Source of the DNA: a virus
DNA: 64,000 bases
Strand: one strand, 5' to 3'
IMG/VR virus record: IMGVR_UViG_3300025137_000028
Coordinates: 9,931-73,930 of that record
The first letter of the stretch is position 1. Each line of letters begins with the position of its first letter. The notes under the pieces are model-generated. The model searched no databases and had not been told where the DNA came from. It saw nothing but the letters and a program-made list of their open reading frames with translations. Made by a program: the position numbers and the translations under genes. Shown one piece after another: positions 1 through 64,000 of this stretch.

Positions 1-1
1 T

Positions 2-1387
2 GCCTCAGTGTATTATCTAGCTATGGGTAGATCGTATGCTTTTAGTACATCTACAAGACCAGACGGTAGAACAGAAGCAGAGGGATCTGATACTTCAGCT
101 CCTACACCAATAGATTCAATACAAGAAGAATTTTATTCTTTTGACGATTTCATGGCTGCTAAAAAAGTAACAAGTAATGACGTATCTTTCTCTATACCGA
201 GAAGAAACTGGACGACTGGCACAGTCTATGATTATTACAGACACGATTATGGTAATTTTGTTACAGGTGGTACAACAGTTCAATCAGCAAATAGTGGTGC
301 TGTAACATTATTTGACGCTACTTTTTATGTAATGTCATCCGACTTTAATATTTACAAAGTTTTAGATAATAATGGCAACGCTGCCTCAACAGTAGAACCA
401 TCAGGAACATCTAACTCTATTTTAACAACTGGTGACGGATACAAATGGAAATATATGTATTCTTTATCAGCTGCTCAAAGACAAAACTTTTTATCTACTG
501 ACTTTATGGCAGTAGCAACAAACTCAACAGTATCATCTGCTGCTACAGACGGTGCTGTAAATATTGTAAAAATTAAAACAGCAGGATCAGGTGGTTCTAA
601 CGGTTCACACACTAGTGTGCCAATTAGAGGCGATGGTTCAAGTGGCGCTGCTACTGTAACTGTATCAGGTGGAGCTGTGACGGCTGTAACTGTAACAAAC
701 GCAGGATCAGGTTACACATTTGCTTATATTAGAAACGCTGATATAGTAACTGCTGGTGCTACAAGTTTATCAGGTTCTGAATTAGACGTAATAATTGAAC
801 CAAAAGGCGGACACGGATTTAATGCTGTAAAAGAATTAGGTGGATTTTTTGTAATGTGTAATGTTAACTTTGAAGGAACAGAATCATCTAACTCAGGTGA
901 CTTTACAGTAGGACAAGATTTTAGAAGAATTGCTTTATTAAGAGATATACAAACAAGTGGATCAGCTTCTACAGCAACTACTTTAAGAGGTTCAAAAGCA
1001 ATATTACTTGCTAGTAACTCTGGTAACTTTACAGTAGATGAAGAAATAAATCAAGCTTCAACAGGTGCTGTAGGTGTAGTTGTTGAATGGGATTCATCAA
1101 ACAAAATTTTGTATTATGTACAGACAAGGCACAATGACGCAGGTGCCGATACAAATGGTAATCTAACAGCATTTTCTGGAACAAATGGTATAACAGGTCA
1201 AAGTTCTAGTGCCACAGGTACACCATCTAGTTCAACTTCAACAGTTGACAGTGTATCTTTTTCTAGTGGCTATGCTGCTCCAGAAATAGACGCAGACACA
1301 GGTGATGTATTATACATAGAAAATAGATCGCCAATAACAAGAGCTGCCGATCAAACAGAGAACGTAAAATTAATAATTGAGTTTTAG
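2..1387 (+). CDS. gp8: Baseplate wedge subunit gp8 (5'-truncated by window edge)
   Basis: Motifs IPRRNWTTGTVYDYY, GDGYKWKYMYS, GGHG and C-terminal IENRSPITRAADQTENVKLIIEF are typical of T4-like gp8; frame is open to the window start. Confidence 0.85.
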   Translation, partial: ASVYYLAMGRSYAFSTSTRPDGRTEAEGSDTSAPTPIDSIQEEFYSFDDFMAAKKVTSNDVSFSIPRRNWTTGTVYDYYRHDYGNFVTGGTTVQSANSGAVTLFDATFYVMSSDFNIYKVLDNNGNAASTVEPSGTSNSILTTGDGYKWKYMYSLSAAQRQNFLSTDFMAVATNSTVSSAATDGAVNIVKIKTAGSGGSNGSHTSVPIRGDGSSGAATVTVSGGAVTAVTVTNAGSGYTFAYIRNADIVTAGATSLSGSELDVIIEPKGGHGFNAVKELGGFFVMCNVNFEGTESSNSGDFTVGQDFRRIALLRDIQTSGSASTATTLRGSKAILLASNSGNFTVDEEINQASTGAVGVVVEWDSSNKILYYVQTRHNDAGADTNGNLTAFSGTNGITGQSSSATGTPSSSTSTVDSVSFSSGYAAPEIDADTGDVLYIENRSPITRAADQTENVKLIIEF

Positions 1388-1396
1388 AGGAAAATA

Positions 1397-4300
1397 ATGC
1401 CAAGTCCAACTGACTTTAACCTCACGCCTTATTATGATGACTTTACTGAAAGTAAAAACTTTCATAGAGTTTTATTTAGACCAGCGTTTGCTGTTCAGGC
1501 GAGAGAGTTAACACAATCACAATCGATATTACAAAATCAAATTGAAAGATTTGGTGATCATATGTTCAAACAAGGAGCTATGGTTATCCCAGGACAAGTC
1601 GGATTAGATACCTCATATTACGCTTTAAAATTAACTTCTAAATCAGCTGCTTCAATAAACACATATTTAAATACAACATTAACAGGTGCTTCATCTGGTG
1701 TTGTTGCTGATATTGTAGGAGTTGCCGCTACAGACGGTACTGATCCTGATACACTATTTGTTAAATATAATAAAACAGGTTCAAATAATACTGCTATAGA
1801 ATTTACAGATGGAGAAACTGCCACATCAAGTGCTGACGGTTCACCAACAGTTGTAGTTGCTACAACACATACTGGTTCTGCTGTCGGAGTAAAACAAGGT
1901 GTATATTACATTAATGGATTTTTTGTTCAAATAGCTGACACAACACTTGTTTTAGATAAGTACACAAACACACCATCTTACAGAATAGGATTTACAGTTA
2001 CAGAATCATTTGTAAACCCAGCAGACGATTCAAGTTTAAATGATAATGCCGCTGGTAGTTCAAATGTAAATGCTCCTGGTGCTCATAGATTTAAAATTTC
2101 ATTAACACTTGCTAAGAAAACATTATCAAGTACCGAAGACTCTAACTTCTTTGAAGTAATGAGAGTTGAAGATGGTCAAATTAGATCACAAATAAGATCA
2201 ACAGAATATAACGTATTAGAAGACACACTTGCTCGTAGAACATTTGACGAATCAGGTGATTATGTTTTAACAAATCCAGATTTTGATGTTAGACAACATT
2301 TAAGTTCAGGTAATAACAGAGGTATATTTACATCTGGTAACGGTGGTTCTGAGGCAAAACTTTCAATAGGTGTTTCACCATTTAAAGCTTATGTAAAAGG
2401 TTATGAATCAGAAATTTTATCAACAACATTTGTTGATGTAGATAAAGCCAGAGATTTTGATACTCAAAATAATAATAAAACAAGATTTAATTTAAAAAAC
2501 TTTGTTAATGTTACAAACGTTTTCGGATCACCTGATATAGGTTTTGTATCTGGTGACGTTGAAGCATTTAAAAAAGTTAGTTTATATAAAGACCCTACAG
2601 TTGCTAGAGGTACGGAAGTATCTACAGTAGGTAATAATGTACCTACAATAGGTAGAGCAAAGTCTCGTGGTTTTGAATATGTAACAGGTAGTGAAACAGA
2701 TGATATATTTGCTACAACAAATACTTACAGACATTATCTATTTGATGTAGAAATGTTTACTCATGTTGATTGTATAGGTTCTGCTTCATACACAACAGGT
2801 GAAATAGTTTCAGGTGCTACTTCAGGCGCAACTGCTACAGTTATGGCTGCTACAGTTACAAGATCAGTTGCTATAACTTCAATAACTGCTTCTAATACAG
2901 ACATGTCCGGAACATTTACTACAGCTGTTGTAACTTTAAACAATCACGGTTTAGTAGACGGACAACAAATTAATGTATCAGGTGGTTCTTTTCAAATAGA
3001 CTCAACTGCTTACACTGAAGGAACTTTTACTGCTAGAAATACTACAACTAATACATTTGAATTGTTTGACGCAACTGGTGATGATCCTGGGATGAACGTA
3101 ACTTCATTCTCTTCAGCACCTACAATAAAACATACAACACTTGTTTTAGCAAACGTAAGTGGATCATTTAGTGCTGGTGAAGTTATTACAGGACAATCTT
3201 CTAACGCTTCTTTATCAAGTCAGGCAGATAGAATTGGATTTAAAGCTGTAACTAGTTTTGACTTTAATCAAACTAAACAAATTGGTATGGCAGGATCACC
3301 TACTTATACTGCTGACACAGTAACAAATTCAACTTATGGATCAAACACTGATTTAACAGGTCAAATTTCAATAGCTGCCTCTGGTCAAACATTATTTGGT
3401 AAAGGTACTTTATTTAATTCAGAATTAAAAATTGGTGACAATGTATCATTTGTTAATGACGCAGGTACAACTATTAACAAAAGAATAAAATATATTCATT
3501 CTAATATTAAGGCACAAATAGATTCAGCAGTAACTAGTAGTGATGAAACAACTGGTTCGCCTATAACAAGAAAAAGAGCAAAATTACAAAATCCTGAAAA
3601 TAATATTTCATTATTTAAGTTACCTAACATTACAATTAAAACTTTAAAAACAACTGATAACTCAGGCTTAACAGATACTAACTTTGGTGTAAGAAGACAC
3701 TTTACAGGTACTTTATCATCTAATGGTGATGTAACGATTACAGCTGGTACTAACGAAGTATTTTCTTCTCAGTTAGAAAAAGATATTACAGCAACTGTTA
3801 TGACAACAGGCTCTGGTGGTACTGGTGCTATAGGTGATGTATTAAATACAAGTGGTAATAACCACGAAGGTGACGCTATCTATAACTTAGGTGGTTCGCC
3901 AACAGGCAAAACTTTACAATTAGATTTTGGTGCTAACTTTGCTGGTCATAAAGTAAAAATTTTAGCAACAGTAAGTAGATCAGTTGCTAACTCAAAATCA
4001 AAAACATTAAATTCAAGTTCAACAGTAAATATTACTTCACAATCTTTTATAGAAAACGGAATATTAGGATTAGGAAAAGCAGACGTTAAGACAATTAATA
4101 ATGTTTACATGTCTCCAGCATTCGGTACAACTGCTACAACTTCACATACAGACGTTACAGATAGATTTAGTTTAGATACAGGTCAAAGAGATAACTTTTA
4201 CGATATAGGAAGAATTAAATTAAAACCAGGTGCTTTAAAACCTACAGGTGAATTATTAGTTAATTTTGATTTCTTCTCTCATGGTTCTGGCGATTACTTT

Positions 4301-7675: not shown

Positions 7676-7676
7676 T

Positions 7677-7898
7677 ATGAGTTTAATTAAAGTAAAAAAT
7701 TTTGATAGTTTAGGTAGAGATATTAGAAGTGGTGCTATTGTTAATACAAATACAAGTGAATATAGTTTATACATGAATAGATTAAAACTAAGAGAACAAC
7801 AAAATGATAAGTTAAGAAACGCTTGTAAAGAAATAAATACTTTAAAGATAGAATTAAGAGAAATAAAAAATTTATTAAAAAAGGTAGTAGGTAAGTAA
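7677..7898 (+). CDS. Conserved hypothetical protein (coiled coil)
   Basis: ATG at 7677 just after the upstream stop; RDIRSGAIVN motif then a coiled-coil-like segment. Confidence 0.7.
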   Translation: MSLIKVKNFDSLGRDIRSGAIVNTNTSEYSLYMNRLKLREQQNDKLRNACKEINTLKIELREIKNLLKKVVGK

Positions 7899-8446
7899 TG
7901 GCTGTAAGATCAGTAGGAACAAATGATACACTAGAAACGTTTAGAAGTACGTTTAATAGTCACGCAACAGACACAGGTGATCTATCTAATTTAAATACAA
8001 CTGACTCAAGTTCGTTAGTTGCTGCTATTAATGAGGCAAAAGCTGGTACATCTACATTTACACTTAGAGATACGTCATCATCTACACAAACAATAACAGG
8101 TGGTGATACACTGAACGTTGAAGGTTCAGGTGGAGTATCTATGACAGTTAGTGCTACAGACACATTAACTGCCTCTTTAGACTCAACAATCACAGGTTTA
8201 ACAAGTTTAACTTCAACTGCTTTAGTAGGTAGTACATCTGTTACAGCAGGAACATTATTTTTAACTGAAAATAGAATTAGAACAACTGATAGTTCGATAT
8301 TGAATTTACAAGATATTATTGGAGTAACAAGTGCTGGTGCGATAAGTGGCGTATCTACTTTAGAAGCTTCTTCGGATATCACTATAAATAGTATAAGTGT
8401 GGCAACAAAACCTTTCGCTATCGCACAAGCAGTAGCATTAGGATAA
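7898..8446 (+). CDS. Virion structural / short fibre-like protein
   Basis: Ser/Thr-rich; TGDLSNLNTT..SSLVAAINE segment; C-terminal FAIAQAVALG. Confidence 0.6.
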   Translation: MAVRSVGTNDTLETFRSTFNSHATDTGDLSNLNTTDSSSLVAAINEAKAGTSTFTLRDTSSSTQTITGGDTLNVEGSGGVSMTVSATDTLTASLDSTITGLTSLTSTALVGSTSVTAGTLFLTENRIRTTDSSILNLQDIIGVTSAGAISGVSTLEASSDITINSISVATKPFAIAQAVALG

Positions 8447-8485
8447 TAAATAAAGATAAATAGTAACAAATAAAGGTAATTAACA

Positions 8486-8854
8486 ATGGCTAACGATTTT
8501 AAAAGATTCGCTGTACCTAATATAGCAACAGCAACAGGTGCCTCAGGCAATGCTGTCTATACAGTACCAGCTGGCGCAAGTTCAAGTGCTTTAGAATCTA
8601 TCGTAATCGGAATAACAATCTGTAATAAAAACTCCTCAGAGAGAACAGTAGGTATATTCTTAGATAACGAAGATGGTTCTAATGACGTGTATATTACAAA
8701 TGGATTAAAAGTTCCAGGTAATACTACAGTTGAGATCATGCAAGGTAATAAATTAGTTCTACAAAACGATGGTTCAAACGCTGACGTTTTAAGAGCTGAA
8801 GCTTCAGCAGGTTCTTCAATTGACGTAACAGTTTCAGTATTAGAAGACGTATAA
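8486..8854 (+). CDS. Virion structural protein (beta-rich)
   Basis: MANDFK start, YTVPA motif, beta-strand pattern; AAAGGT SD-like sequence. Confidence 0.55.
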   Translation: MANDFKRFAVPNIATATGASGNAVYTVPAGASSSALESIVIGITICNKNSSERTVGIFLDNEDGSNDVYITNGLKVPGNTTVEIMQGNKLVLQNDGSNADVLRAEASAGSSIDVTVSVLEDV

Positions 8855-8866
8855 TAGGGATTCACA

Positions 8867-9109
8867 ATGGTAAGATATATAAATGGAAAAGATAGACCTA
8901 CAGAGGTCAATACAAGACAGAATACAGGTGACGGTTCTACAACTGGTTTTACTGTAACACAAGGTATGACTGCTAATAAAGTAATAGTTTCTGTAAATGG
9001 TCTAGTACAAGAATCTTCTAACGATTTTTCAATCTCAGGCACTACATTAACTTTTGGTACGGCACCAAACAGTGGGGATGACGTTAACATAATAGAATTA
9101 CCAGTATAA
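8867..9109 (+). CDS. Small structural protein, stand-alone TGDGSTT beta domain
   Basis: Aligns by eye with a domain near the C-terminus of the VrlC-like protein. Confidence 0.6.
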   Translation: MVRYINGKDRPTEVNTRQNTGDGSTTGFTVTQGMTANKVIVSVNGLVQESSNDFSISGTTLTFGTAPNSGDDVNIIELPV

Positions 9110-9119
9110 GGATTAAACA

Positions 9120-10655
9120 ATGGTTCAAAAAATAAGAAGTAATCAAACAGATTTTACAAGTGATGATGACGCTATATTAATACCTAAGGGTACTTCAGCA
9201 CAAGGCTCTACAGTAACGGCAGGTGCTCTAAGATATAATACAACAACAGGTAGACTAGAAGTAGCCGATGGTTCTGCTTACGTTGGTGTAGGTATAGAAA
9301 TTCCTACAATTACTAGTGTTAGCCCTACAAACATAAACGCAAATGTTGACGGTGCTACAACAGACGTTGTTGTTACAGGTACAGGTTTTACAACAGGTGC
9401 TGTTGTTAAATTTATTGGTAATGACGCTTCATCTGTTACAGCAACTACAACAACAAGAAATTCAGCAACACAATTAACTGCTCGTGTTACAAATGCTAAC
9501 TTAGCTTCATCAAAAGAACCATTTGATGTTAAAGTTGAATTAGTTGAAGGTGTACAGACACAAATAGACAATCAAATTTCAATTAACGCTACTCCTGCTT
9601 TTATTACATCTGCTGGTTCTTTAGGATCATTTGAAGATGATGAAAGATCAGGTATCAGTATAGTAGTAGGGGCAACAGACGAAGAGTCTGCTGGTCCAGT
9701 TTTATTCAGAGTAGCAACTGGTGATTCATTACCAGCTGGTTTAGCTTTAACAAGTAATGACAATGATACTTGTACAATCGCTGGCGACGCTACAGCAGTA
9801 GATGACGATACTACAACAAGTTTTGACATTGAAGCTTCAGACGCTGCTTCAAACGTAACAACAAGATCATTTACAATCGCTATCCTTGCTAATAAATCTC
9901 AACAATTTAATGCTAACGGTACATTTGCTGTACCAACTGGTGTTACTGCTGTTCAGTTATTAGTTGTAGGATCCGGTGGTACTGGAGGAACAGGTGGCGG
10001 AGGCGGTGCTGGATTATGTTTCACAAACTCATTCTCAGTTTCCCCTGGTGGTACAGTAGCTGTTACAGTTGCTGGACTAAACAATAATAGACAAACATTC
10101 CCAGCCCCTAATACTCAATCTCGTGGTGCTTCAGGTGACTCATCTGTATTCAATACGACTGTAACTGCCATTTCTGGTGGCGGTGGCGGAGGTCCAGGTG
10201 GGCAGAATGACGCACAGTTACCAGGTAAAGACGGTGGATCAGGCGGCGGAGGCGGAGCCACGGGCGGTAAAGGTGGTTTCTATTCTGGTGGTCAAGGTAC
10301 ACAAGGTGCTTCTGGTGGTGTTCCAGGTTTTGGTAATGACGGTGGTGCTGGTTCAGGTACAGGAAATAACGGAACAAATGGTGGCGGTGGCGGAGGTGCT
10401 GGTGCTGCTGGCGGTAACGCAAATGCTTTACAAAACTCAAAAGGTGCTGGCGGTGACGGTAAACTATTTAATATAGCTGACGGTTCAACTAACGTTGGAT
10501 ACGCTGGAGGTATGGGTGGTTCTACTACTAGTACAGCCTTTGGTGCTGTTAACCCAGGTAGTCCAAACACAATGACTGATCCTCAACACGCAAACAGAGG
10601 TGGTGCTGGAAGCGGACAAGCCGCTGCTGGTGTTGTTATTGTTCGTTGGTCATAA
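9120..10655 (+). CDS. Tail fibre / adhesin-like protein with Ig-like domains and a glycine-rich C-terminal domain
   Basis: PTITSVSP (IPT/TIG-like), LPAGLAL cadherin-like domain, Gly-rich region ending GVVIVRW. Confidence 0.7.
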   Translation: MVQKIRSNQTDFTSDDDAILIPKGTSAQGSTVTAGALRYNTTTGRLEVADGSAYVGVGIEIPTITSVSPTNINANVDGATTDVVVTGTGFTTGAVVKFIGNDASSVTATTTTRNSATQLTARVTNANLASSKEPFDVKVELVEGVQTQIDNQISINATPAFITSAGSLGSFEDDERSGISIVVGATDEESAGPVLFRVATGDSLPAGLALTSNDNDTCTIAGDATAVDDDTTTSFDIEASDAASNVTTRSFTIAILANKSQQFNANGTFAVPTGVTAVQLLVVGSGGTGGTGGGGGAGLCFTNSFSVSPGGTVAVTVAGLNNNRQTFPAPNTQSRGASGDSSVFNTTVTAISGGGGGGPGGQNDAQLPGKDGGSGGGGGATGGKGGFYSGGQGTQGASGGVPGFGNDGGAGSGTGNNGTNGGGGGGAGAAGGNANALQNSKGAGGDGKLFNIADGSTNVGYAGGMGGSTTSTAFGAVNPGSPNTMTDPQHANRGGAGSGQAAAGVVIVRWS

Positions 10656-10686
10656 AAAATTAATTATATAATAATAGGAGTATATT

Positions 10687-11235: not shown

Positions 11236-11240
11236 ATGTT

Positions 11241-13950: not shown

Positions 13951-14766
13951 ATGGCAAAACCATCAAGCAGAGCGAATCTAAAAGAATATGCTTTAAGAGC
14001 ATTAGGTAAACCTGTCATAGAAATAAATGTTGATGACGACCAGTTAGACGATAGACTGGACGAAGCATTACAATACTATGCTCAATTTCACTATGATGGT
14101 ATTAGAAGAACATATTTAAAATATAAATTAACAGCAGCCGATAAAACTCGATTATCAACTGTTAATGGTGCTACTGAAACAGCAACAGATGCATCAGGCG
14201 ACACAACAACTTGGTTTGAAGATAACAGTTATCTTTCAGTACCAGAATCCATTATTTCAGTCATTAATATTTTTCCTTTTTCAGATAAAGGTAATCTAAA
14301 CATATTTGATGTTAGATACCAACTTAGATTAAATGATCTTTATGATTTCTCTTCAACGTCTGTAATCAATTATGATATAGTAATGAGACAATTAGATTTT
14401 TTAGATCATATATTAGTAGGTGAAAAACCAATAAGATTTAATCAACACGATAACAGATTATACATTGATATGGATTGGTCAAATGATTTACAAGAAGATG
14501 AATTTATTGTTATTGAGTGTTATAGAAAATTAGATCCATCTGTTTACACAGACGTTTTTGATGACATATATTTAAAAAGATATGTTACTGCTTTATTTAA
14601 AAAACAATGGGGCGCTAACTTATCAAAATTTAATGGGGTAACTATGATAGGTGGTGTAAGTTTAAATGGTCAACAAATTTACAGTGAAGCATTAACAGAT
14701 ATAGAAAAATTAGAAACAGAAATAAGATCCACATACGAGTTAAACCCTGCTATAATGATAGGATAA
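13951..14766 (+). CDS. gp13: Neck protein gp13
   Basis: LRALGKPVIEINVDDDQ and KKQWGANLSKF motifs; synteny. Confidence 0.92.
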   Translation: MAKPSSRANLKEYALRALGKPVIEINVDDDQLDDRLDEALQYYAQFHYDGIRRTYLKYKLTAADKTRLSTVNGATETATDASGDTTTWFEDNSYLSVPESIISVINIFPFSDKGNLNIFDVRYQLRLNDLYDFSSTSVINYDIVMRQLDFLDHILVGEKPIRFNQHDNRLYIDMDWSNDLQEDEFIVIECYRKLDPSVYTDVFDDIYLKRYVTALFKKQWGANLSKFNGVTMIGGVSLNGQQIYSEALTDIEKLETEIRSTYELNPAIMIG

Positions 14767-16362: not shown

Positions 16363-16363
16363 T

Positions 16364-42053: not shown

Positions 42054-42199
42054 GTAGAGGTGTATTAAAAATTATAGCTAAGTTAAGAATGCTATGGGCA
42101 GACATAAGAGGTCATCATGGCAAAGTATGGGATTATGAACCTGGTGATTATTATATGGGTAGCCATAAAGGTCATAAAAAACATCAAAAGAAAAAATGA
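42050..42199 (+). CDS. Small hypothetical protein (49 aa, not in ORF track)
   Basis: MSRGVLKIIAKLRMLWADIRGHHGKVWDYEPGDYYMGSHKGHKKHQKKK; ATGA overlaps with both neighbours. Confidence 0.6.
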   Translation: MSRGVLKIIAKLRMLWADIRGHHGKVWDYEPGDYYMGSHKGHKKHQKKK

Positions 42200-47468: not shown

Positions 47469-47921
47469 ATGACAGATCACAAAGCAATTCACTCAATTTT
47501 TACTGGACTAAAACCGTTTACTGTAGGGTTTGACGATATGTTTGACCATTTAGATATGGTACACAATCACATTCCACATTTAACGGCTAATAACTATCCG
47601 CCATACAATATTGTAAAGACAGGCTCTTTAACATATGACATAGAAGTGGCATTGGCTGGTTATAATAAGAAAGATGTACAAGTAACTTATGAGAATAATA
47701 TGATTAAAATTAACTCTGTAAAAAGTAAAGACGAAAAAGAAGTTGAAGACAATGACGGAATATTACATAAAGGCATTGCTAAAAGAAACTTCTATAAATC
47801 TTTTACTATAGCAGAGGATATTGAGGTAAAAGGTGCTGAATTAAAAGATGGACTTTTAAGAGTATCTTTAGAAAAAATTGTTCCAGACCATAAGAAGGCT
47901 AGAACTATCAATATCAAATAA
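47469..47921 (+). CDS. hsp20: Small heat-shock protein Hsp20 (IbpA-like)
   Basis: NYPPYNI, EVALAG, HKGIAKR.F and DGLL motifs. Confidence 0.95.
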   Translation: MTDHKAIHSIFTGLKPFTVGFDDMFDHLDMVHNHIPHLTANNYPPYNIVKTGSLTYDIEVALAGYNKKDVQVTYENNMIKINSVKSKDEKEVEDNDGILHKGIAKRNFYKSFTIAEDIEVKGAELKDGLLRVSLEKIVPDHKKARTINIK

Positions 47922-48774: not shown

Positions 48775-48782
48775 TATAAATA
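48775..48782 (+). promoter_or_regulatory. T4-type late promoter
   Basis: TATAAATA 5 nt before ATG 48788. Confidence 0.7.
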
Positions 48783-50120: not shown

Positions 50121-50387
50121 ATGAAATACAATGAAGATAAAATCTTAAAAGAGATAGACGAATATATTAAATCTACTTATGGTCAGCATTACTCAAAAGG
50201 TAAAGATGGCTTTCAAGTTTTAGATTTACTTAAAACTCTCAACGTAGGACAAGATTTTTGTCATGCTAACGCAATTAAATATTTGTGTAGGTATGGTAAG
50301 AAGAACGGCCATAATAGAGCTGACTTATTAAAAGCAGTTCATTATGTAATATTATTATTAAATTATGATAAGGAGAAGGTGAAATGA
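50121..50387 (+). CDS. DUF3310-like conserved phage protein
   Basis: TYGQHY, NAIKYLCRYGKKNG and DLLKAVHY motifs. Confidence 0.8.
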   Translation: MKYNEDKILKEIDEYIKSTYGQHYSKGKDGFQVLDLLKTLNVGQDFCHANAIKYLCRYGKKNGHNRADLLKAVHYVILLLNYDKEKVK

Positions 50388-51043
50388 ACATAAGCACAGA
50401 TACAATTGCTGTACTGAAAAATTTTTCAGACATTAATCAAAACATATTGATTAAACCAGGTAATGTGGTACAGACAATTTCTACAATGAAGAATATTTTA
50501 GCAGAGGCTGAAATAACAGAAAAATTTGATAGTGAGTTTGCTATCTATGATTTACCTGAATTTTTAAGATCAGTTGAATTATTTGATAAACCACAACTTA
50601 AATTTAATGGCGAATCAAATGTTAAAATTGAGAGTGGCGCTCAATCAGTAAAATACTTTTTTGCTGATAAATCAGTTATAGTTGCTCCTAAGAAAAGCAT
50701 TAATATGCCTGATAAACATGTTACATTTACTTTGAAAAAAGATGTGTTTACTCAGTTAATGAAAGGTGCTACAACACTTAACTTACCAGACATTGCTGTT
50801 AAAGGTGATGGTAGTAAGATTACATTAGTCGCTACTGATAAGAAAAACAAATCATCAAACGATTATTCATTAGTTATAGGTGAAACAGATAAAGAATTTT
50901 CTGCTTTCTTTAAAACAGAAAACTTTAAACAAGTTGTTGATGATTATGATGTAGCTATTTCTAAACAAAAAATATCACATTTTGTTAATAGAAATAAATC
51001 AATACAATATTGGATTGCTTTAGAACCTGATTCAGAGTTTTAA
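50384..51043 (+). CDS. gp45: Sliding clamp gp45
   Basis: LKNFSDINQ, FAIYDL.EFL and YWIALE motifs. Confidence 0.95.
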   Translation: MNISTDTIAVLKNFSDINQNILIKPGNVVQTISTMKNILAEAEITEKFDSEFAIYDLPEFLRSVELFDKPQLKFNGESNVKIESGAQSVKYFFADKSVIVAPKKSINMPDKHVTFTLKKDVFTQLMKGATTLNLPDIAVKGDGSKITLVATDKKNKSSNDYSLVIGETDKEFSAFFKTENFKQVVDDYDVAISKQKISHFVNRNKSIQYWIALEPDSEF

Positions 51044-52899: not shown

Positions 52900-52918
52900 T
52901 TGAAAAGGAGTTTATATT

Positions 52919-53863: not shown

Positions 53864-53867
53864 GACT

Positions 53868-55993: not shown

Positions 55994-57490
55994 ATGGAAG
56001 TTTCTAAATTTAAAGAGTTTATTAGTGAAGATAGAAGTATAGATAGAAAAGATAAATCTATTACTATTGCTATCATCACAATAGCAGATTCAAAAGACCC
56101 TAAAGAAAATACAACTGCTGATCTTATACAAAAAGCGTGTAAGAAAAAAGGCTTAAAATGTATTATTGTAAATACTAAATCTACAATCATAACAGATAAA
56201 GATGAAGATAAAAATACTTTAACTGTTTATAATTATGATGGTAAAAATAGTGAACACACTTTCACTGGTAAAGATACAATTTGTTTTACAAGAGGTGGTG
56301 CTTTAGAAGATGAAGCAGGACTATCTCTAATATCTTCATTTCAAAACTCACAAGCATTTATGTTAAACACAAGAGCGGCAATGCTTACTTGTGATAACAA
56401 ACTTACAGCTGCTTTGTTGTTTGAAAAGTTTGGGTTACCTACACCTAAAACATCTTATGTTTCTAATGAGAATAATATTAAGACTGCTTTAGATATGGTA
56501 GGCGGTAAATTTCCTGTGATAATGAAAACACTTACAGGTACACAAGGTGTTGGTGTTATTAAAATTGAGAGTTATGAAGGTCTAGTGGCAACTTTACAAG
56601 CAATGTGGAAACTAGAAGCAGAAATATTATTACAAGAGTATATGCCTTCTAAGTTTGATGTAAGAACGGTAGTAGTAGATAATAAAATATTTGCTAGTAC
56701 AAAAAGAACTCACAGCTCTTATGACTTTAGATCAAACACACATAGAGGGGCAGAGGCAGAACCATATACTATAGATGATGAAGAAAGAGAATTAATATTA
56801 AAGGCAGCCAGAGTTTCTAAAGCATATTATGTAGGAGTAGATCATATAATATTTAATAATAAACCATATCTATTAGAGATTAACGGTAGTCCAGGTTCAG
56901 GTGCTGATTACGAGGGGTATCAACATAGAGATTATTACGCTGACGCAGAGCCAGCAGGTAGAATTGATGGCGAAAAAGTAATAGAAAATTTAATTGATTA
57001 TGTTTCAGAAAGAAAAAATTGGGATAGACAATCACTTTTAGAAACTGGTTGGTTAGAAACAGTTGATTTAGATGAAGTGGGTAAAGTAAGAGTTAAGTTT
57101 GATACTGGTAACGGTTCAGCTGCTTGTGCCTTACACGCAGACAAAATTTTAGAAGATGGTAAGATTGTTAAATGGAAATATGATGGCAAGACTTATAGTA
57201 AACCTAGACATGGTACAAGTAAAGTGTTTAGATCAAATGCTACTAACGAACCATCAGAGGTAAGACCAACTATATTAATGGACTTAACATTTAATGGTTT
57301 TACATATAAAAATATAGAGATTGGTTTAGACCAAAGACCTAGATCAGGTTCAGACCTACTAGTCAATAGAGATTTAATGCGACAGATGAATATTAGTGTC
57401 AACCCTAATAGAACGTTTGTATTAAGTAAAAGAATAAGACCCATTGAAAAAGATGGTAAAAAAGATAAAATTGGCTTTGAAAAGAAATAA
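55994..57490 (+). CDS. RimK-like ATP-grasp ligase fused to a RimB-like retropepsin-type protease
   Basis: ATP-grasp motifs DNK, FPV..K..GTQG.GV, QEY, FRSN.HRG and EINGSPG; C-domain GWLETV...KFDTGN...RP...L..R. Confidence 0.85.
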   Translation: MEVSKFKEFISEDRSIDRKDKSITIAIITIADSKDPKENTTADLIQKACKKKGLKCIIVNTKSTIITDKDEDKNTLTVYNYDGKNSEHTFTGKDTICFTRGGALEDEAGLSLISSFQNSQAFMLNTRAAMLTCDNKLTAALLFEKFGLPTPKTSYVSNENNIKTALDMVGGKFPVIMKTLTGTQGVGVIKIESYEGLVATLQAMWKLEAEILLQEYMPSKFDVRTVVVDNKIFASTKRTHSSYDFRSNTHRGAEAEPYTIDDEERELILKAARVSKAYYVGVDHIIFNNKPYLLEINGSPGSGADYEGYQHRDYYADAEPAGRIDGEKVIENLIDYVSERKNWDRQSLLETGWLETVDLDEVGKVRVKFDTGNGSAACALHADKILEDGKIVKWKYDGKTYSKPRHGTSKVFRSNATNEPSEVRPTILMDLTFNGFTYKNIEIGLDQRPRSGSDLLVNRDLMRQMNISVNPNRTFVLSKRIRPIEKDGKKDKIGFEKK

Positions 57491-57494
57491 AACC

Positions 57495-57523
57495 TTGACA
57501 AGGACGATAAAGAGTGATATAAT
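57495..57523 (+). promoter_or_regulatory. Consensus sigma70 promoter of the gp43 operon
   Basis: TTGACA-N17-TATAAT with TG extension. Confidence 0.85.
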
Positions 57524-57546
57524 TAAACAATAATCAAGGAGATATA

Positions 57547-57864
57547 ATGCAAGAAGTGAAGTTATTAAGATTGACCACTGGCGAAGATGTAATTGCTAAA
57601 GTGGGTGAGAACGACCAAGGTGTAAGTTTACATAAACCATTTGTAATCATACCACAACAATCAGCACCAGGAAAACCTATACAACTTATGATGAGTTTGT
57701 ATAATGCGTTTGGTAAGAGTGATACAATTACTCTAGCAAAAGATAAGATTGTTTTTACTACAGAACCAAAAGATGATCTTGTAAAATCGTATGAGGCAAA
57801 TACTAGTACGATAATTCAATCAAAATCAAATCTAATTACAGAAAACAAACTACCTAAACTTTAA
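57547..57864 (+). CDS. Conserved hypothetical protein (Sm-like fold candidate)
   Basis: VKLLRLTTGEDVIA motif; AAGGAG SD. Confidence 0.7.
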   Translation: MQEVKLLRLTTGEDVIAKVGENDQGVSLHKPFVIIPQQSAPGKPIQLMMSLYNAFGKSDTITLAKDKIVFTTEPKDDLVKSYEANTSTIIQSKSNLITENKLPKL

Positions 57865-57866
57865 TA

Positions 57867-58202
57867 GTGATTACTGTTTACTTTGTAAGAGACGGCTCTA
57901 AAATACGAGTTGATGTTCCTGTGAACACAACTCTTATGGAAGCAGCTAAACAAAGTGATGTACCTATACATGAAATACCTGCTGATTGTGGTGGGTCTTG
58001 TGCTTGTTGTACATGTCACATCCATTTAACTGATCAATGGGTTGACAAACTAGGTAAAATAGATTATAATGGCTTAGAAACTAGTTTGATAGAATATGAA
58101 AAAAATTATGTAGAGGGTATAAGCAGACTTGCTTGTCAAATACAATTGAAACCTGAACATGATGGACTAATAGTGAATTTATTAAAACATGAACTTTTAT
58201 AA
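57867..58202 (+). CDS. fdx: 2Fe-2S ferredoxin (adrenodoxin/Fdx type)
   Basis: CGGSCACCTCH...SRLACQ; GTG start. Confidence 0.92.
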   Translation: MITVYFVRDGSKIRVDVPVNTTLMEAAKQSDVPIHEIPADCGGSCACCTCHIHLTDQWVDKLGKIDYNGLETSLIEYEKNYVEGISRLACQIQLKPEHDGLIVNLLKHELL

Positions 58203-60675
58203 AAATGTAATAGAACATCACGGCAAGTTGCTTGTTCGTGGCGTTAGAGACGGCAAAGACTATAAAGAAAAAATAGATTATAGTCCTACTCTTTATGCTA
58301 TGACACAAGAAGAAAGTCAATTTAAAACTTTACAAGGTCAAAACTTAAAACCTATTACTTTCGGTAATATCAAAAAAGCAAGAGATTTTAAAAGACATTA
58401 TAATACAGGTAACGCACCAATCTATGGTATGGATCGTTATCACTATCAGTACATATCAGATAAACATCCTAATGAAATTGATTTTAAAAAAGAAGCAATT
58501 AAAATATTTACTTTAGATATTGAAACTAGTTGTGAAAATGGATTTCCAGATGTAGAAAATCCTATTGAAGAAATACTTTGTCTTACTGTTAAAAATCAAT
58601 CTAATAAACAAATCATAACTTGGGGTACAGGTGAGTTTACAACAAGAAGAGAAGATGTTTATTATATTAAATGTAATACAGAAAAACAATTGATTATGGA
58701 ATTTATGAAGTTCTGGATTAAAAATTATCCAGATGTCATAACAGGTTGGAATACTAAATTTTTTGATTTACCATATCTAGTAAACAGAATAAGAATGTTA
58801 ACAGATGAAAAAGTTATTAAAAGATTATCGCCTTGGAATTTAATTGAAAGATCAGAAATAACTAGTTGGGGAAGAAACCAAACTGTTTATCATCTATTAG
58901 GTATTGTTATGTTAGATTACATGGATTTGTATCGTAAGTTTATACCTGCTAAGCCAGAGAGTTATAAACTAAATTACATAGGTAAAATAGAACTAGGTGA
59001 AGTAAAAGATGATAATCCATATGAAACATTTAAAGACTGGTATACAAAAGACTTTCAATCATTTGTTGATTATAATATACAAGACGTTGAGATTGTTGAT
59101 AAGTTAGAAGATAAACTAAAACTTATTGAACTTATATTAACTATGGCGTATGAAGCAAAGATCAATTATGATGATGTATTCTCACAAGTTAGATTTTGGG
59201 ATACTCTAATCTATAATCATCTAAGAAAAAAGAATATAGTCATACCACCTAAAGAAGATAATATAAAAGAATTTAAATATGACGGTGCTTATGTAAAAGA
59301 ACCTTTAGTAGGTTTACATAAATGGGTTGTGTCATTTGATATTAACTCTCTATATCCTCATTTAATAATGCAATATAATATTTCGCCAGAAAAAATTATA
59401 GGTGTTAAAAGTAATGGTATTAATGTAGATAAACTTTTAAATCATGCTACGCCACTTACACATTTAAAAACTGAAGGTGCTACTATAACTCCTAACGGTG
59501 CTATTTTCAAAACAGACAATCAAGGTTTCTTACCTGAGATTATGGAAAAGATGTATGGGGATCGTGTTGTTTATAAAAAGAAAATGATGATAGCAAAAAC
59601 AGAATATAATAAAACAAAAGACCCTCAACTATTAAAAGAAATTAGTAGATGTCATAATATTCAGTATTCTAAAAAGATAGGTCTTAACAGTGCTTACGGC
59701 GCTGTAGGTAATCAATATTTTAGATACTATGATGTAAGACAAGCAAGTGCTATCACATCAGCAGGTCAATTTGTAATTAGATATATTGAAAAATCTGTAA
59801 ATGAATTTATGAATGATATATTAAAAACACATAACAAAGTTGATTATATTGTTGCGTCTGATACAGATTCAATTTATTTGACTTTAGATAAACTTGTTGA
59901 AAAATTTTGTAAAGATAAAACTAAAGAACAAATTATAAATTTTATTGATAAAGTTGTTGATGGTAAAATTGAACCATTTATTGAAAAATGTTTTAAAGAA
60001 GTTGCTGAATACACAAATGCTTTTCAACAAAAAATGGTAATGAAACGAGAAGTAATCGCAGATAAGGGTATCTGGACTGCTAAAAAAAGATATATTCTTA
60101 ATGTGTTAGATGAAGAAGGTATTAGATTAGATGACCCTAAATTAAAGATTATGGGTATTGAGGCAGTTAGATCATCAACACCTGAAGTATGCCGAGGTAA
60201 AATTAAAGAATGTATTAAAATGATTATGACTAAAGATGAAGCAGACGTACAAAAGTTTATTGCTGATTTTAAGAAAGAATTTTTTACAATGAAAGCAGAA
60301 CAAATATCTTTTCCTAGAAGTTGTAATAATATTAAAAAATATAGAGATAGTAATAGTGTGTTTATTAAAGGTTCGCCTATTCATGTAAAAGGTGCTTTAA
60401 TTTACAATCATCAAATAAAAGAAAAAGGTTTAGATCATAAGTATCCTTATATTAATGATGGCGATAAGATTAAGTTTATTAAATTAATAGGGGCAAATCC
60501 ATTTAAGTTTGATGTAATAAGTTATGTTACAACACTACCAAGTGAGTTTAAACTACAAGATTATATTGATTATGAAACTCAGTTTGAAAAAACTTTTATT
60601 GATCCTATTAGTTTTATACTTAACTCTATTGGCTGGTCAGCTGAACCTAAGGCAAGTTTAGAAAGTTTTTTTTAA
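58189..60675 (+). CDS. gp43: Family B DNA polymerase gp43
   Basis: DIET exonuclease, SFDINSLYP, K...NSAYG and DTDS motifs. Confidence 0.98.
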   Translation: MNFYKNVIEHHGKLLVRGVRDGKDYKEKIDYSPTLYAMTQEESQFKTLQGQNLKPITFGNIKKARDFKRHYNTGNAPIYGMDRYHYQYISDKHPNEIDFKKEAIKIFTLDIETSCENGFPDVENPIEEILCLTVKNQSNKQIITWGTGEFTTRREDVYYIKCNTEKQLIMEFMKFWIKNYPDVITGWNTKFFDLPYLVNRIRMLTDEKVIKRLSPWNLIERSEITSWGRNQTVYHLLGIVMLDYMDLYRKFIPAKPESYKLNYIGKIELGEVKDDNPYETFKDWYTKDFQSFVDYNIQDVEIVDKLEDKLKLIELILTMAYEAKINYDDVFSQVRFWDTLIYNHLRKKNIVIPPKEDNIKEFKYDGAYVKEPLVGLHKWVVSFDINSLYPHLIMQYNISPEKIIGVKSNGINVDKLLNHATPLTHLKTEGATITPNGAIFKTDNQGFLPEIMEKMYGDRVVYKKKMMIAKTEYNKTKDPQLLKEISRCHNIQYSKKIGLNSAYGAVGNQYFRYYDVRQASAITSAGQFVIRYIEKSVNEFMNDILKTHNKVDYIVASDTDSIYLTLDKLVEKFCKDKTKEQIINFIDKVVDGKIEPFIEKCFKEVAEYTNAFQQKMVMKREVIADKGIWTAKKRYILNVLDEEGIRLDDPKLKIMGIEAVRSSTPEVCRGKIKECIKMIMTKDEADVQKFIADFKKEFFTMKAEQISFPRSCNNIKKYRDSNSVFIKGSPIHVKGALIYNHQIKEKGLDHKYPYINDGDKIKFIKLIGANPFKFDVISYVTTLPSEFKLQDYIDYETQFEKTFIDPISFILNSIGWSAEPKASLESFF

Positions 60676-61298: not shown

Positions 61299-61416
61299 TT
61301 TACATTGGGGATTTGCTACAGGTGGCATATTAGCAATAAGAACTGATTGGTCTATACCTAGATTTATATTAATATGTTTAATGATGAGATATTTTTTATT
61401 AAGTTATGGCTTTTAA
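61267..61416 (+). CDS. Small two-helix membrane protein (49 aa, not in ORF track)
   Basis: MLEAILILGISLHWGFATGGILAIRTDWSIPRFILICLMMRYFLLSYGF; AGGAG upstream; fills the gap. Confidence 0.55.
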   Translation: MLEAILILGISLHWGFATGGILAIRTDWSIPRFILICLMMRYFLLSYGF

Positions 61417-61942
61417 TACAAAAGACAAATATGGTGTAATTTATGCTGATCCTCCTTGGTACTTTAAGAGTTACAGTAAAAAAGGTGAAGGTAGAAATGC
61501 TACACAACATTATCCTTGTATGAACCTTGAAGATATATGTAAGTTGCCAGTTAGTGAACTTGCTAATGACAACTCTGTATTGTTAATGTGGGTAGTTGAC
61601 CCATTATTAGATCAGGCATTTAAAGTAATAGACGCTTGGGGGTTCAAGTACAAGACAGTAGGTTTTACATGGGCAAAAACAAATAGTAAGAGTTTAGGTT
61701 TCTTTACAGGTTTAGGATATTGGACAAGATCAAATCCAGAAATGTGTTTACTTGCTACAAAAGGTAAACCAAAAAGAAACAGTAAGAGTATACCACAATT
61801 AGTGGTTGAACAAAGGCAAGAACATAGTAGAAAGCCAGATATTATATATAACCATATAGAAAATATGTTAGATGGTCCTTATGTTGAACTCTTTGCTCGT
61901 AGAAAAAGAAACAACTGGCATAGTTGGGGCAATGAAGTATGA
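61406..61942 (+). CDS. MT-A70 family N6-adenine methyltransferase
   Basis: IYADPPW, HY.CM, WGFKY and HSRKP...ELFAR...W.SWGNE motifs. Confidence 0.92.
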   Translation: MAFNTKDKYGVIYADPPWYFKSYSKKGEGRNATQHYPCMNLEDICKLPVSELANDNSVLLMWVVDPLLDQAFKVIDAWGFKYKTVGFTWAKTNSKSLGFFTGLGYWTRSNPEMCLLATKGKPKRNSKSIPQLVVEQRQEHSRKPDIIYNHIENMLDGPYVELFARRKRNNWHSWGNEV

Positions 61943-62025
61943 CCTTGACATTAGCAATATTTTATAGTATACTACCCCTATTATTTGTATGTTTATTATT
62001 ATGGATGTGGAACAATGAAAAGTGA
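61939..62025 (+). CDS. Possible 28-aa hydrophobic peptide
   Basis: MTLTLAIFYSILPLLFVCLLLWMWNNEK; ATGA overlap with the MT-A70 stop. Confidence 0.35.
   Translation: MTLTLAIFYSILPLLFVCLLLWMWNNEK
61945..61973 (+). promoter_or_regulatory. Sigma70-type promoter
   Basis: TTGACA-N17-TATACT. Confidence 0.7.
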
Positions 62026-63310
62026 TTTATATAATGAATTAAAACAATATGCCAATGAAGACAGATTGCCTGTTGTTGATTCTATACAGTTTAAAAGATT
62101 AACAGATACTTACACTAAAGAAGTGTTTAGAGAAACACTATCTGAATATATCGCTACAGAAAAACCAAAATTTCCTCTTAGAACTATCTCATTTGAAAAG
62201 ATGAGAGAGATATTTTTTAAATTAAAAAACTTTGATACTTCTAAGATATGTACACCTCAAAATCAAAATCAAAATCCTGTATTAGAAAAATATGAAGATT
62301 ACAAGTATCCTTATAAAACTCATGGTCTAGGTTTGATAGAATCATCATCACAATTCAATGACGCTTCAAATTACTTTCACCAAGATTTAAGATTAGATTG
62401 TGGCACTTGGCAGTTTAAGTCACCTAGAAACACTTGGGAAAACGGCACACCTAAAGAGATATGGTCAACATTAGGTGGTTTATGGCGTGGTGTAAATAGT
62501 TCAAAAGATTTATCACCTGATAGTTATATAGAAGTTATAAGATTAGGTACATATATCGCAACACAATTTAAACCTGTTGTAGCAAAAACTATTTACGATA
62601 TGACAGAGGCAGAAAAAGTATTAGATACTAGTTGTGGTTGGGGCGATAGATTGTGTGGTTTTTATTCATCAAACGCTAAGATGTATATAGGTTGTGATCC
62701 TAATCCTTACACATTTGAAAGATATAAACAACAAGTAAGAGACTATGAAAAAATATTAGGCAATGATAGTGTTAAGATTACTGAAAAACCAGATATGTTT
62801 ATATCTGAGGGCAAAAAACAAGTGATGATATTTAATAAAGGTGCTGAAGATTTACCTTACGATAAACTACCTAAAGTTGATGTAACATTTACAAGTCCAC
62901 CTTATTTCTCTACTGAAAAATATAACGCAGGTGGTGATAAAGAAGAAAATCAAAGTTGGGCTAAGTTTGATGAGTACAATAAATGGCGTGATGATTTTTA
63001 CTTACCTGTGTCTAAAAAATGTATGGATATATCTAAGTTTATTTTAATAAACATTATGGATCCAAAGATTAAAAATAAAAGATATTATTCTAGTGATGAG
63101 TTAGTTGATAGTATACCAGATAAATTCATAGGTCAAATAGGTATGAAGATTAGACAAAGACCTAAATCAGATAAACTTTTTGAAAGTGAAGAAGAAAAGA
63201 GAGCATTTGAATCTGCTACATATATAGAAAACGTATGGTGTTTCGGTCCTAAAGAACACGACTTTTTTAAACATAGTAGAAAGGCAACACTTGATAGTTT
63301 TTTTGAATAA
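62015..63310 (+). CDS. DNA amino-methyltransferase (SPPY type), paralog of 42196..43275
   Basis: TQFKP..A..IYD, DTSCGWG.RL, YIGCDP and FTSPPYF motifs; ATG 62015 preferred. Confidence 0.85.
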   Translation: MKSDLYNELKQYANEDRLPVVDSIQFKRLTDTYTKEVFRETLSEYIATEKPKFPLRTISFEKMREIFFKLKNFDTSKICTPQNQNQNPVLEKYEDYKYPYKTHGLGLIESSSQFNDASNYFHQDLRLDCGTWQFKSPRNTWENGTPKEIWSTLGGLWRGVNSSKDLSPDSYIEVIRLGTYIATQFKPVVAKTIYDMTEAEKVLDTSCGWGDRLCGFYSSNAKMYIGCDPNPYTFERYKQQVRDYEKILGNDSVKITEKPDMFISEGKKQVMIFNKGAEDLPYDKLPKVDVTFTSPPYFSTEKYNAGGDKEENQSWAKFDEYNKWRDDFYLPVSKKCMDISKFILINIMDPKIKNKRYYSSDELVDSIPDKFIGQIGMKIRQRPKSDKLFESEEEKRAFESATYIENVWCFGPKEHDFFKHSRKATLDSFFE

Positions 63311-63317
63311 ATAGACC

Positions 63318-63346
63318 TTGACATGGTAAAGAAAATAATGTATAAT
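63318..63346 (+). promoter_or_regulatory. Consensus sigma70 promoter of uvsX
   Basis: TTGACA-N17-TATAAT. Confidence 0.85.
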
Positions 63347-63380
63347 AACAACATAAAAAGTGATAAGGAGATATTAGAAT

Positions 63381-64000
63381 ATGAGCAATTTTCTAAAAGA
63401 CATAATTAAAGAAACAGGTAATGAATATGCTACATTAGTAGCAGACGGTGTTGATTCAGCAGACGTAACAAGTTTTATAGATACAGGTTCATATTCATTT
63501 AATGCTTTACTATCAGGTAGTATTTACGGTGGTATGCCAGCAAATAAAATTACAGCAATCGCTGGTGAAGCTGCTACAGGTAAAACATTTTTCGCCTTAG
63601 GTATCTGTAAAGCATTTTTAGATAAAAACAAAGACGCTGGTGTTATTTACTTTGAATCAGAGGGTGCTATCTCAAAAGATATGATTGAGAGTAGAGGTGT
63701 TGATTCTAGTAGAATGGTTATCGTACCAGTTGCTACAGTACAAGAATTTAGAAGTCAATCAATAAAAGTAATTGAAAAATATTTAGAACAATCAGAGTCA
63801 AGTAGAAAACCTTTGTTGTTTGTATTAGATAGTTTAGGTATGTTATCTACTACAAAAGAAATGGAAGATACGGCTGCTGGTAAAGAGACAAGAGACATGA
63901 CTAGATCACAAATAGTCAAGTCAACATTTAGAGTATTAACATTAAAATTAGGTAAGGCTGGCATTCCATTGATTATGACCAATCACACTTATGATGTTAT
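63381..64000 (+). CDS. uvsX: RecA-like recombinase UvsX (3'-truncated, not in ORF track)
   Basis: Hand translation [11 protein letters not shown]...[15 protein letters not shown]...[10 protein letters not shown]...LDSLGML...DMTR; TAAGGAG SD. Confidence 0.95.

Follow-up and report, generated by a model that had tools for sequence, protein, structure and literature searches.

The stretch of DNA analysed here, called the window below, comprises bases 9931–73930 (64,000 nt) of the 73,930-bp IMG/VR record IMGVR_UViG_3300025137_000028, whose completeness is put at about 40% by CheckV. Judged from its similarity to known phages, it is a fragment of an uncultured T4-like pelagimyophage whose relatives infect SAR11 bacteria. 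Its conserved genes showed ~78% DNA identity to those of the Pelagibacter phages Mosig and HTVC008M. With Mosig it shared 54 reciprocal best hits, which had a mean protein identity of 60% and kept the gene order. The GC content was 31.5%, and the + strand held nearly all genes. Two features of the window are the subject of this work: the near absence of the tetranucleotide TGCA, and a gene for a D12-class N6-adenine DNA methyltransferase (D12 below) inserted between hsp20 and DUF3310/gp45. In this slot, the D12 stop codon is followed after 16 nt by the gene of a second protein, p48788, and the same gene order was found in the L094 and L102 clades, L numbers denoting loci of a survey described below.

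TGCA occurred six times in the window and seven times in the whole contig. A Markov model of order 2 predicted 178 occurrences in the window. Genes were called as simple open reading frames (ORFs) of at least 50 aa on the + strand; shuffling codons within them led to an expectation of 184 ± 11 (z = −16.5), and shuffling synonymous codons with the proteins kept led to 161 ± 9 (z = −17.4), with a minimum of 137 over 300 shuffles. A preliminary description of this DNA had claimed a strong avoidance of TGCA, and this was borne out: the observed/expected ratio (O/E) was 0.037 under the synonymous shuffle, the outcome named beforehand as speaking against avoidance being a ratio near 1 after codon-preserving shuffling. 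Under the same null, TGCA ranked as the most depleted of the 136 reverse-complement-collapsed 4-mers. The most enriched ones were its one-base neighbours AGCA/TGCT (1.34) and GGCA/TGCC (1.46), because replacements of TGCA leave that footprint.

The depletion did not depend on strand and was present in all three reading phases and in the non-coding DNA of the window, which held no TGCA in 3.4 kb. At the level of codon pairs, NNT GCA was observed once against 151 expected, though the alanine codon GCA was used 372 times. Leucine or valine codons TTG, CTG and GTG were never followed by CAN, that is, by His or Gln (11.5 expected), TGC was never followed by ANN (1.8 expected), and ATG CAN was observed 5 times against 20.5 expected. 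The codon-level details of the preliminary description were thereby confirmed, namely that GCA almost never follows a codon ending in T and that Gly-Ala and Asn-Ala are coded accordingly: we counted 0 GGT GCA versus 55 GGT GCT and 0 AAT GCA versus 38 AAT GCT, and found GGC GCA at 2825, 8573, 13781 and 25495, as cited there. The residual sites were exactly the six it had listed (Table 1). Five of these are forced, ATG being followed by CAx, and the one at 14190 alone was avoidable; it sits inside ATGCAT.

The loss also reached the proteins themselves. Met-His and Met-Gln dipeptides numbered 5 against 21–24 expected from shuffled proteins (P<0.001), that is, they were about 4-fold depleted, and the Mosig control showed no such depletion (58 versus 56 expected). 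Met-His and Met-Gln always read ATG CAx, so TGCA is irreducible at these dipeptides by synonymous change, and GGCC is irreducible in the same way because Trp-Pro always reads TGG CCN. An exhaustive check of the sixteen 4-bp palindromes showed that only TGCA and GGCC have such synonymously irremovable contexts.

The D12 protein matched PF02086 with 90 bits, as compared with a cut-off of 22, over profile positions 1–241 of 253. Its catalytic motif D182-P-P-Y185 and its N-terminal S-adenosylmethionine (SAM)-binding glycine motif E27-P-F-G-G-A32 were invariant in 10 orthologues. The nearest solved structures were those of the GATC enzymes DpnM (2dpm) and EcoDam (2g1p), with profile E values of 6e-12 to 1e-8. 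No close relative was confirmed when 185,579 genomes of prokaryote species were scanned by pattern, and names gave no clue to specificity, all 3,801 D12 homologues carrying generic ones only.

We then surveyed IMG/VR with four anchors: the clamp loader (80 loci), p48788 (22 loci), p48788 with an alignment (74 loci) and D12 (55 loci). O/E values in the survey are Markov-2 values for loci of 4–21 kb, most of which are fragments, so that "absent" means absent from the visible slot. Among loci with a fully visible hsp20–gp45 slot, TGCA O/E was 0.45–1.05 in about 46 without D12 and 0.00–0.50 in about 50 with it. Once duplicates were removed (28 versus 35 loci), the median was 0.07 with D12 and 0.76 without (area under the curve (AUC) 0.00, p = 1.4e-11), such p-values ignoring the kinship among loci, which is addressed by a tree and by sister pairs. 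In these ~95 loci, we found no discordant case, neither a D12+ locus with normal TGCA nor a D12− locus with purged TGCA. On the clamp-loader tree, the D12 state changed six times, at least four of these changes being forced by well-supported branches, and TGCA followed every time; L187, nested among D12-less relatives, had an intermediate TGCA O/E of 0.50. As compared with D12− relatives, D12+ phages had, per kb, 22-fold fewer unforced TGCA and 3.7-fold fewer forced ATG CAx. In L162 and L200, D12 was the only gene in the slot, which fits an orphan methyltransferase, and TGCA was 0/12 and 0/25, respectively.

The other fifteen palindromes showed no association with D12, except for a weak trend of GATC, which was less depleted with D12 (AUC 0.71, p 0.005). 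Moreover, D12+ clades had no further avoided word in common, which argues that no single host "barcode" lies behind them. Such an exclusive and repeated link between TGCA loss and one methyltransferase subclade argues that D12 acts on TGCA. A link across the whole family was ruled out: distant D12 homologues (35–47% identity, 80 loci, other phages) had a median TGCA O/E of 0.86 and a minimum of 0.48. The link is thus confined to this subclade, a pattern that a change of specificity inside the family would produce. As a separate observation, about a quarter of the loci with these distant homologues (L203–L282) had zero GATC despite their Dam-family methyltransferase, for instance L210 (0/44), L225 (0/57) and L241 (0/56), and may represent another case in which a methylase is present and a palindrome is gone.

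A pair of sister loci was informative as to how the sites were lost. L098 (D12+) and L082 (D12−) aligned with 85.1% identity over 6,988 bp, and the alignment was broken solely by a clean 2.1-kb insertion corresponding exactly to D12 and a p48788 homologue. TGCA O/E was 0.03 in L098 versus 0.76 in L082. Indeed, 23 of the 24 TGCA sites of L082 were destroyed in L098, so that conservation was 0.04, where other 4-mers had a median of 0.56. The replacements in L098 were TGCT (7), CGCT (3), CGCA (3), AGCA (2), TTCA (2), TACA (2) and TGTA (1). Substitutions in all directions at the lost sites point to selection and not to C-to-T decay. The reverse flip was seen for ACGT, all 15 sites kept by L098 being gone in L082.

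These data bear on the null explanation, a neutral or translational artefact: either sites decayed by mutation, as when methylated C is deaminated, or a codon-pair bias unrelated to DNA recognition was at work. We found nothing in its favour. Decay was ruled out by the multidirectional substitutions in the L098/L082 pair, which were not mainly C to T. As for the artefact in general, it is hardly credible and, to the extent that sequences can show, excluded, since all three frames and non-coding DNA are affected, TGCA is kept by close relatives whose codon usage is the same, and amino-acid changes are involved. Because neither frame nor strand affects the loss, which also reaches amino acids, is lineage-specific and went in all directions at the sister sites, the removal of TGCA is supported as selection of the restriction-avoidance kind. 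We consider it very probable that, in this lineage, TGCA is selected against by an agent acting in a sequence-specific manner. The preliminary description had proposed restriction pressure, exerted either by a host system or by the phage's own nuclease; the pressure stood, and the indirect evidence as to its source is weighed below.

Table 1. Coordinates of the features discussed in the text (window positions, unless a survey locus is named)
Feature	Coordinates	Strand	Remarks
D12-class N6-adenine DNA methyltransferase, 263 aa	47980-48771	+	Pfam PF02086 E 2.7e-25; PADLOC MTase_II
48788 protein (p48788), 429 aa	48788-50077	+	phage-only family, often but not always beside D12
TATAAATA, T4-type late-promoter word	48775-48782	+	in the D12/48788 gap, 5 nt before ATG
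Other TATAAATA copies	8383, 13114, 19319, 25058, 25738, 47403	+	ahead of gene starts
Residual TGCA, forced	8739-8742	+	ATC ATG CAA (Ile-Met-Gln), ORF 8486-8854
Residual TGCA, sole unforced	14190-14193	+	GAT GCA TCA (Asp-Ala), ORF 13951-14766, neck protein homologue
Residual TGCA, forced	26106-26109	+	ATG CAC (Met-His), prohead core gene 25796-26926
Residual TGCA, forced	35830-35833	+	ATG CAA (Met-Gln), recombination endonuclease homologue 35334-36407
Residual TGCA, forced	57548-57551	+	start codon ATG + CAA, ORF 57547-57864
Residual TGCA, forced	59369-59372	+	ATG CAA (Met-Gln), DNA polymerase 58189-60675
hsp20	47469-47921	+	upstream flank of methyltransferase slot
DUF3310/gp45	50121-51043		downstream flank of methyltransferase slot
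420-470-aa ORF family	L062:65-1327, L165:277-1638, L178:8596-10008		INDGKPLNE.EKRN and C-terminal YH.GH...N...N blocks
MT-A70-family DNA methyltransferase	61406-61942	+	Pfam PF05063 E 7e-30
Weak N6_N4 methyltransferase-like protein	42196-43275	+	homologues in TGCA-keeping relatives (e.g. L033)
Weak N6_N4 methyltransferase-like protein	61985-63310	+	homologues in TGCA-keeping relatives (L050, L053, L081)
Tail-fibre-like ORFs	7898-8446 and 8486-8854	+	taken as real genes

About ten words of restriction type have been purged from the window, TGCA to the most extreme degree. TCWWGA was absent from the window (73 expected), as were the 6-bp palindromes AGATCT (0/20, observed/expected here and below), AGTACT (0/17), GAATTC (0/10) and TACGTA (0/10). 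The non-palindromic GATGC/GCATC was also depleted (10/67, z −11), as a result of which Asp before Ala was coded GAC 57 times and GAT 4 times. Among 4-bp words, GGCC stood at 6/32, two of the six being forced by Trp-Pro, TCGA at 17/73 and CGCG at 0/5, and AGCT was partly purged (120/281). Taken one by one, the TCWWGA members were TCAAGA (0/31), TCTAGA (0/21), TCTTGA (0/10.7) and TCATGA (0/10.2); the related words TCCAGA (19/12), TCAGGA (8/12) and TCCTGA (11/15) were retained, which makes this purge narrower than TCNNGA. CTCC/GGAG had an O/E of 0.49. The GGCC survivors at 21599, 25798, 32479 and 39371, four of the six, had the context TGGCCGA in common (TTGGCCGA, ATGGCCGA and, twice, CTGGCCGA), and only the one at 21599 is a forced Trp-Pro; the other forced Trp-Pro site, at 40526 (TTGGCCTG), lacks this context, which may be a functional or shielded motif.

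The erased set differed between relatives. Mosig kept TGCA (595/628), had GATC at 19/366 and ACGT at 0/166, and lacked CGCG; HTVC008M kept TGCA and was devoid of TCGA and GGCC; Melnitz kept TGCA and was devoid of GATC. Three podophages, HTVC011P, HTVC019P and HTVC010P, were isolated on the SAR11 strain of Mosig (Pelagibacter HTCC1062). None of the three avoided TGCA, and total purges of other palindromes were observed in HTVC011P (GATC 0/81, TCGA 0/23) and HTVC019P (GATC 0/95, GCGC 0/33, GGCC 0/20). Pelagiphages of unrelated families thus generally erase words of the restriction type, and the erased set is lineage-specific. Among close relatives, each palindrome acts as an on/off character: ACGT was totally purged in L082 (0/35) and in Mosig (0/166, L001–L003) and kept in the sister L098, and CATG was 112/133 in the window versus 0/24–38 in the close relatives L091–L095 and L161. 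A value of ACGT 3/20 was also recorded within the podophage set, and the annotation of HTVC011P includes an anti-restriction protein.

Two facts lead us to favour an agent external to the phage: the window is purged of about ten different words, and palindromes are totally purged in unrelated podophages infecting the same SAR11 host. The phage lineage would meet a TGCA-cutting, Type II-like endonuclease that lies outside its own genome and belongs to its natural hosts or, possibly, to competing phages. Pressure of this kind would also have erased the other words here and the palindromes missing from unrelated pelagiphages. D12 would methylate TGCA, its predicted target, and thereby shield the irreducible sites; selection would meanwhile remove every removable TGCA and thin out Met-His and Met-Gln. 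The need to shield irreducible sites would explain why the purge of TGCA comes with a methylase. We give this combination of an external endonuclease and a shielding D12 about an even chance.

Several points weigh against it. The TGCA specificity of D12 is a prediction, and DpnM and EcoDam, its nearest solved relatives, are GATC enzymes. A protective methylase would normally relax selection against its own site. In SAR11, neither a restriction enzyme specific for TGCA nor methylation of this word is known (PMC7029224; PMC8919816), restriction-modification (R-M) has been called rare in this group (PMC7029224), and the methylomes of SAR11 metagenome-assembled genomes showed only GAWTC (PMC8919816). 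Many D12+ lineages pair D12, in an operon-like manner, with a large ORF, p48788 or one of 420–470 aa, that resembles a nuclease partner. Lastly, D12+ phages never purge GATC fully, which is the trend reported above (AUC 0.71), and a GATC-specific Dam would explain this too.

This last point leads to another possibility, a co-adaptation to shared hosts, in which D12 would protect a different site, for example GATC as in the case of T4 Dam, and the same hosts would separately restrict TGCA. The nearest solved relatives of D12 are in its favour, and so is the fact that full GATC loss, never seen in D12+ loci, was common in D12− loci (p 0.005). However, two separate causes would have to leave no discordant class in ~95 loci despite at least four independent state changes, D12+ clades have no other avoided word in common, and the clade of L100–L104 and L196–L198 is D12+ yet has a GATC O/E of about 0.2. 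On balance, we regard this co-adaptation as distinctly unlikely.

A further possibility was that no nuclease is involved. An orphan methylase would target TGCA, and methylated sites would be mildly harmful for transcription, replication or packaging; weak selection would suffice in very large phage populations, as proposed for CcrM/GANTC in Alphaproteobacteria. In Alphaproteobacteria, SAR11 among them, GANTC/GAWTC has been reported as depleted in association with an orphan methylase (PMC8919816), and the exclusive association of D12 with TGCA loss is what such a mechanism would give. Yet the depletion of TGCA is about 30-fold versus 2–3-fold for GANTC, the survivors are scattered forced codon pairs and not regulatory positions, and classic restriction sites make up the rest of the purged words. 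Besides, no reason is offered for keeping a methylase whose targets vanish. We therefore hold harm from methylation as the sole cause to be very improbable.

The remaining candidate source of selection lies in the phage itself, and p48788, designated as a possible agent in the preliminary description, was examined from this angle. Its gene is preceded by the T4-type late-promoter word TATAAATA, of which the window holds 7 copies, all on the + strand and 5–95 nt ahead of a gene start. The other copies precede genes 8486, 13142, 19409 (sheath), 25090 (prohead protease), 25796 (prohead core) and 47469 (hsp20), and this distribution, mostly before structural genes, is consistent with T4-type late promoters. 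The N-terminus of p48788, MISFKQYLKDE, has a pattern common only to the 55994 protein within the window, and we take it, as a lead only, to resemble the T4 capsid-targeting sequence. That other protein, RimK/ATP-grasp-like and encoded at 55994–57490, begins MEVSKFKEFISE. Acidic/lysine blocks are invariant in p48788 (D..KSRLGY.SE, FDI.LTGDS.KG..KAD.V and SLKAYK) and are only suggestive of a nuclease.

A deep search with a hidden Markov model (HMM) recovered about 111 clusters of the p48788 family, all unnamed and found only in viral contigs. A second pattern scan of the 185,579 genomes, made for p48788, confirmed no relative, and cultured phages yielded none either. Neither Pfam nor PADLOC gave a match at the usual threshold; relaxing the Pfam search to E = 10 brought up only weak hits without meaning, and ten remote or longer family members showed no informative Pfam domain. 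A PDB profile search gave a single match with E = 1.7. An AlphaFold2 (AF2) model, with a predicted local distance difference test (pLDDT) score of 68, matched nothing in pdb at E ≤ 0.001 with Foldseek, and the wide VIA-align search gave a best Z of 5.6 with helical transporters, at noise level.

Other D12+ lineages (L062, L165, L175–L182 and L193) carry an unrelated 420–470-aa ORF, absent from the window, which lies upstream of D12 and overlaps its start by 8 bp. A GmrSD-like Type IV nuclease would combine a DUF262/GmrSD_N domain with a C-terminal HNH/DUF1524 domain; in this family, GmrSD_N gave a signal at E 0.44 and HNH_4 one at E 0.004, neither reaching the cut-off and each in a different member. 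Neither a PDB profile search nor a Foldseek search with an AF2 model (pLDDT 60) gave a match. From its position and these faint signals, this ORF may be a nuclease partner. No nuclease domain was found among the Pfam-scanned window genes lacking Mosig orthologues, which were mostly 2OG-Fe(II) oxygenases, the rest having no Pfam match.

With such candidates at hand, D12 could be the modification half of a phage-encoded TGCA-directed system. In the window, p48788 would serve as the nuclease, perhaps after late synthesis and packaging into the capsid, and in other lineages different ORFs would take this part. The nuclease would degrade host or competitor DNA, the phage being immune by having no sites. 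In a variant of this scheme, the methylase would mark foreign TGCA for a methyl-dependent nuclease. The methylase-then-ORF layout, with a spacing of 12–20 nt, is kept in two distant clades, and the late-promoter word directly ahead of p48788, its invariant blocks, the finding of both partner families in viral sequence only, the 8-bp overlap and faint nuclease signals of the 420–470-aa ORF, and the reported rarity of R-M in SAR11 (PMC7029224) all argue for such a system.

In contrast, the distribution of the partners argues against it. Every locus with a close p48788 homologue lacks TGCA, but in roughly half of the D12+ lineages no candidate for a partner occupies the slot (L162, L200, L163 and L190, and the L030 and L194 types, in which only a peroxiredoxin stands beside D12), and yet TGCA O/E there is 0–0.14. 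The L031 type is likewise D12+ and purged without p48788 in the slot. Conversely, distant p48788 homologues without D12 go with a TGCA O/E of 0.8–0.9 (L135, L143–L149). In five longer D12+ records, themselves fragments, p48788 was not found. The partner-less D12+ lineages and the distant homologues rule out p48788 as a necessary cause of the purge. The preliminary suggestion that p48788 is the agent was thus not upheld in the sense that the protein is not required, TGCA being equally absent in relatives that lack it in the slot; the gene that follows the purge is its neighbour D12, which the preliminary description had overlooked. Moreover, the three partner families are mutually unrelated, and the ~ten other purged words and the podophage purges need an external agent in any case. 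Altogether, a phage-borne TGCA nuclease is in our opinion rather unlikely, albeit worth keeping in mind. We deem it unlikely as well that the hsp20–gp45 slot as a whole is a phage weapon, combining an early TGCA methyltransferase with a late, capsid-delivered nuclease. That nuclease would be p48788 here and the GmrSD/HNH-like ORF in other lineages; it would destroy TGCA-bearing DNA of the host or of rival phages by cutting unmethylated or methylase-marked sites, and self would be told from non-self by the erasure of TGCA from the phage's own genome.

Comparison with known systems helps in placing the external endonuclease and shielding D12 that we favour. T4 Dam is a phage orphan Dam-family methyltransferase. 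D12 is akin to this type by its PF02086 domain, its DPPY and SAM-binding motifs, its small size and its location in the replication/early region of a T4-like phage. It departs from it in that similarity is distant, its presence goes with loss of a palindrome and not with tolerance, and its specificity would be for TGCA. TGCA-specific Type II systems are exemplified by CviRI, from chlorella virus XZ-6E, and HpyCH4V, from Helicobacter pylori. They recognize the word purged here, and we draw the likeness by recognition word alone, claiming no homology. CviRI is virus-encoded together with an adenine methylase, and so provides a precedent for the phage-borne system considered above.

Injected anti-restriction factors are also found in T4, whose internal proteins (e.g. 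IPI*) are diverse and share only a capsid-targeting sequence (PMC3012670). Known here from its sequence alone, p48788 resembles them by its upstream late-promoter word and its hypervariable slot and differs from IPI by its much larger size of 429 aa. The CcrM/GANTC-GAWTC case (PMC8919816) is similar in that a motif is under-represented where an orphan methyltransferase is present, the match to D12 being a predicted one. There, depletion is 2–3-fold, in cellular genomes, and connected with cell-cycle regulation (PMC8919816), unlike the about 30-fold depletion seen here in a lytic phage alongside purges of restriction sites.

Avoidance of short palindromic restriction sites is established in virulent double-stranded DNA phages (PMC6286503). 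As in the phages of that survey (Rusinov et al. 2018, PMC6286503), an orthodox Type II-type 4-bp palindrome is nearly eliminated here by synonymous changes, and several sites are purged at once, in a set differing between relatives. Unlike in those phages, the purge in the window reaches the amino-acid level, and R-M is reportedly almost lacking in SAR11, which this phage group infects (PMC7029224). The repeated and exclusive coupling to one phage methyltransferase was not described in that survey either. What is new is therefore that a restriction-type purge occurs in phages whose host group is believed to lack R-M, that it flips between 85%-identical sisters, that it extends to amino acids, and that methyltransferase and purge are coupled, a coupling for which "irreducible sites" would be the rationale.

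SAR11 is the most abundant ocean bacterial group and has been described as nearly devoid of R-M; its phages, T4-like ones and unrelated podophages, nonetheless carry the sharpest restriction footprint. Either SAR11 populations hold unrecognized restriction activities, or phages restrict each other. The coupling yields a testable prediction of specificity, TGCA, for the uncharacterized D12 subclade. It also suggests a rule, namely that a word that cannot be removed synonymously, such as TGCA via Met-His and Met-Gln, needs a methylase as a second defence, and this would account for the presence of a methylase alongside certain purges only.

Other methyltransferase genes are present in the window (Table 1). 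The MT-A70-family gene was rejected as being linked to the purge, as it is conserved in relatives with and without purged TGCA; we found it in Mosig, L008, L012, L017 and L050. Both weak N6_N4 methyltransferase-like proteins have homologues in relatives that keep TGCA. Finally, two minus-strand ORFs of 196 and 187 aa, at window positions 7960–9120, overlap the tail-fibre-like ORFs, the second of which contains the first residual TGCA site. Their translations look spurious, and the + strand ORFs were preferred.

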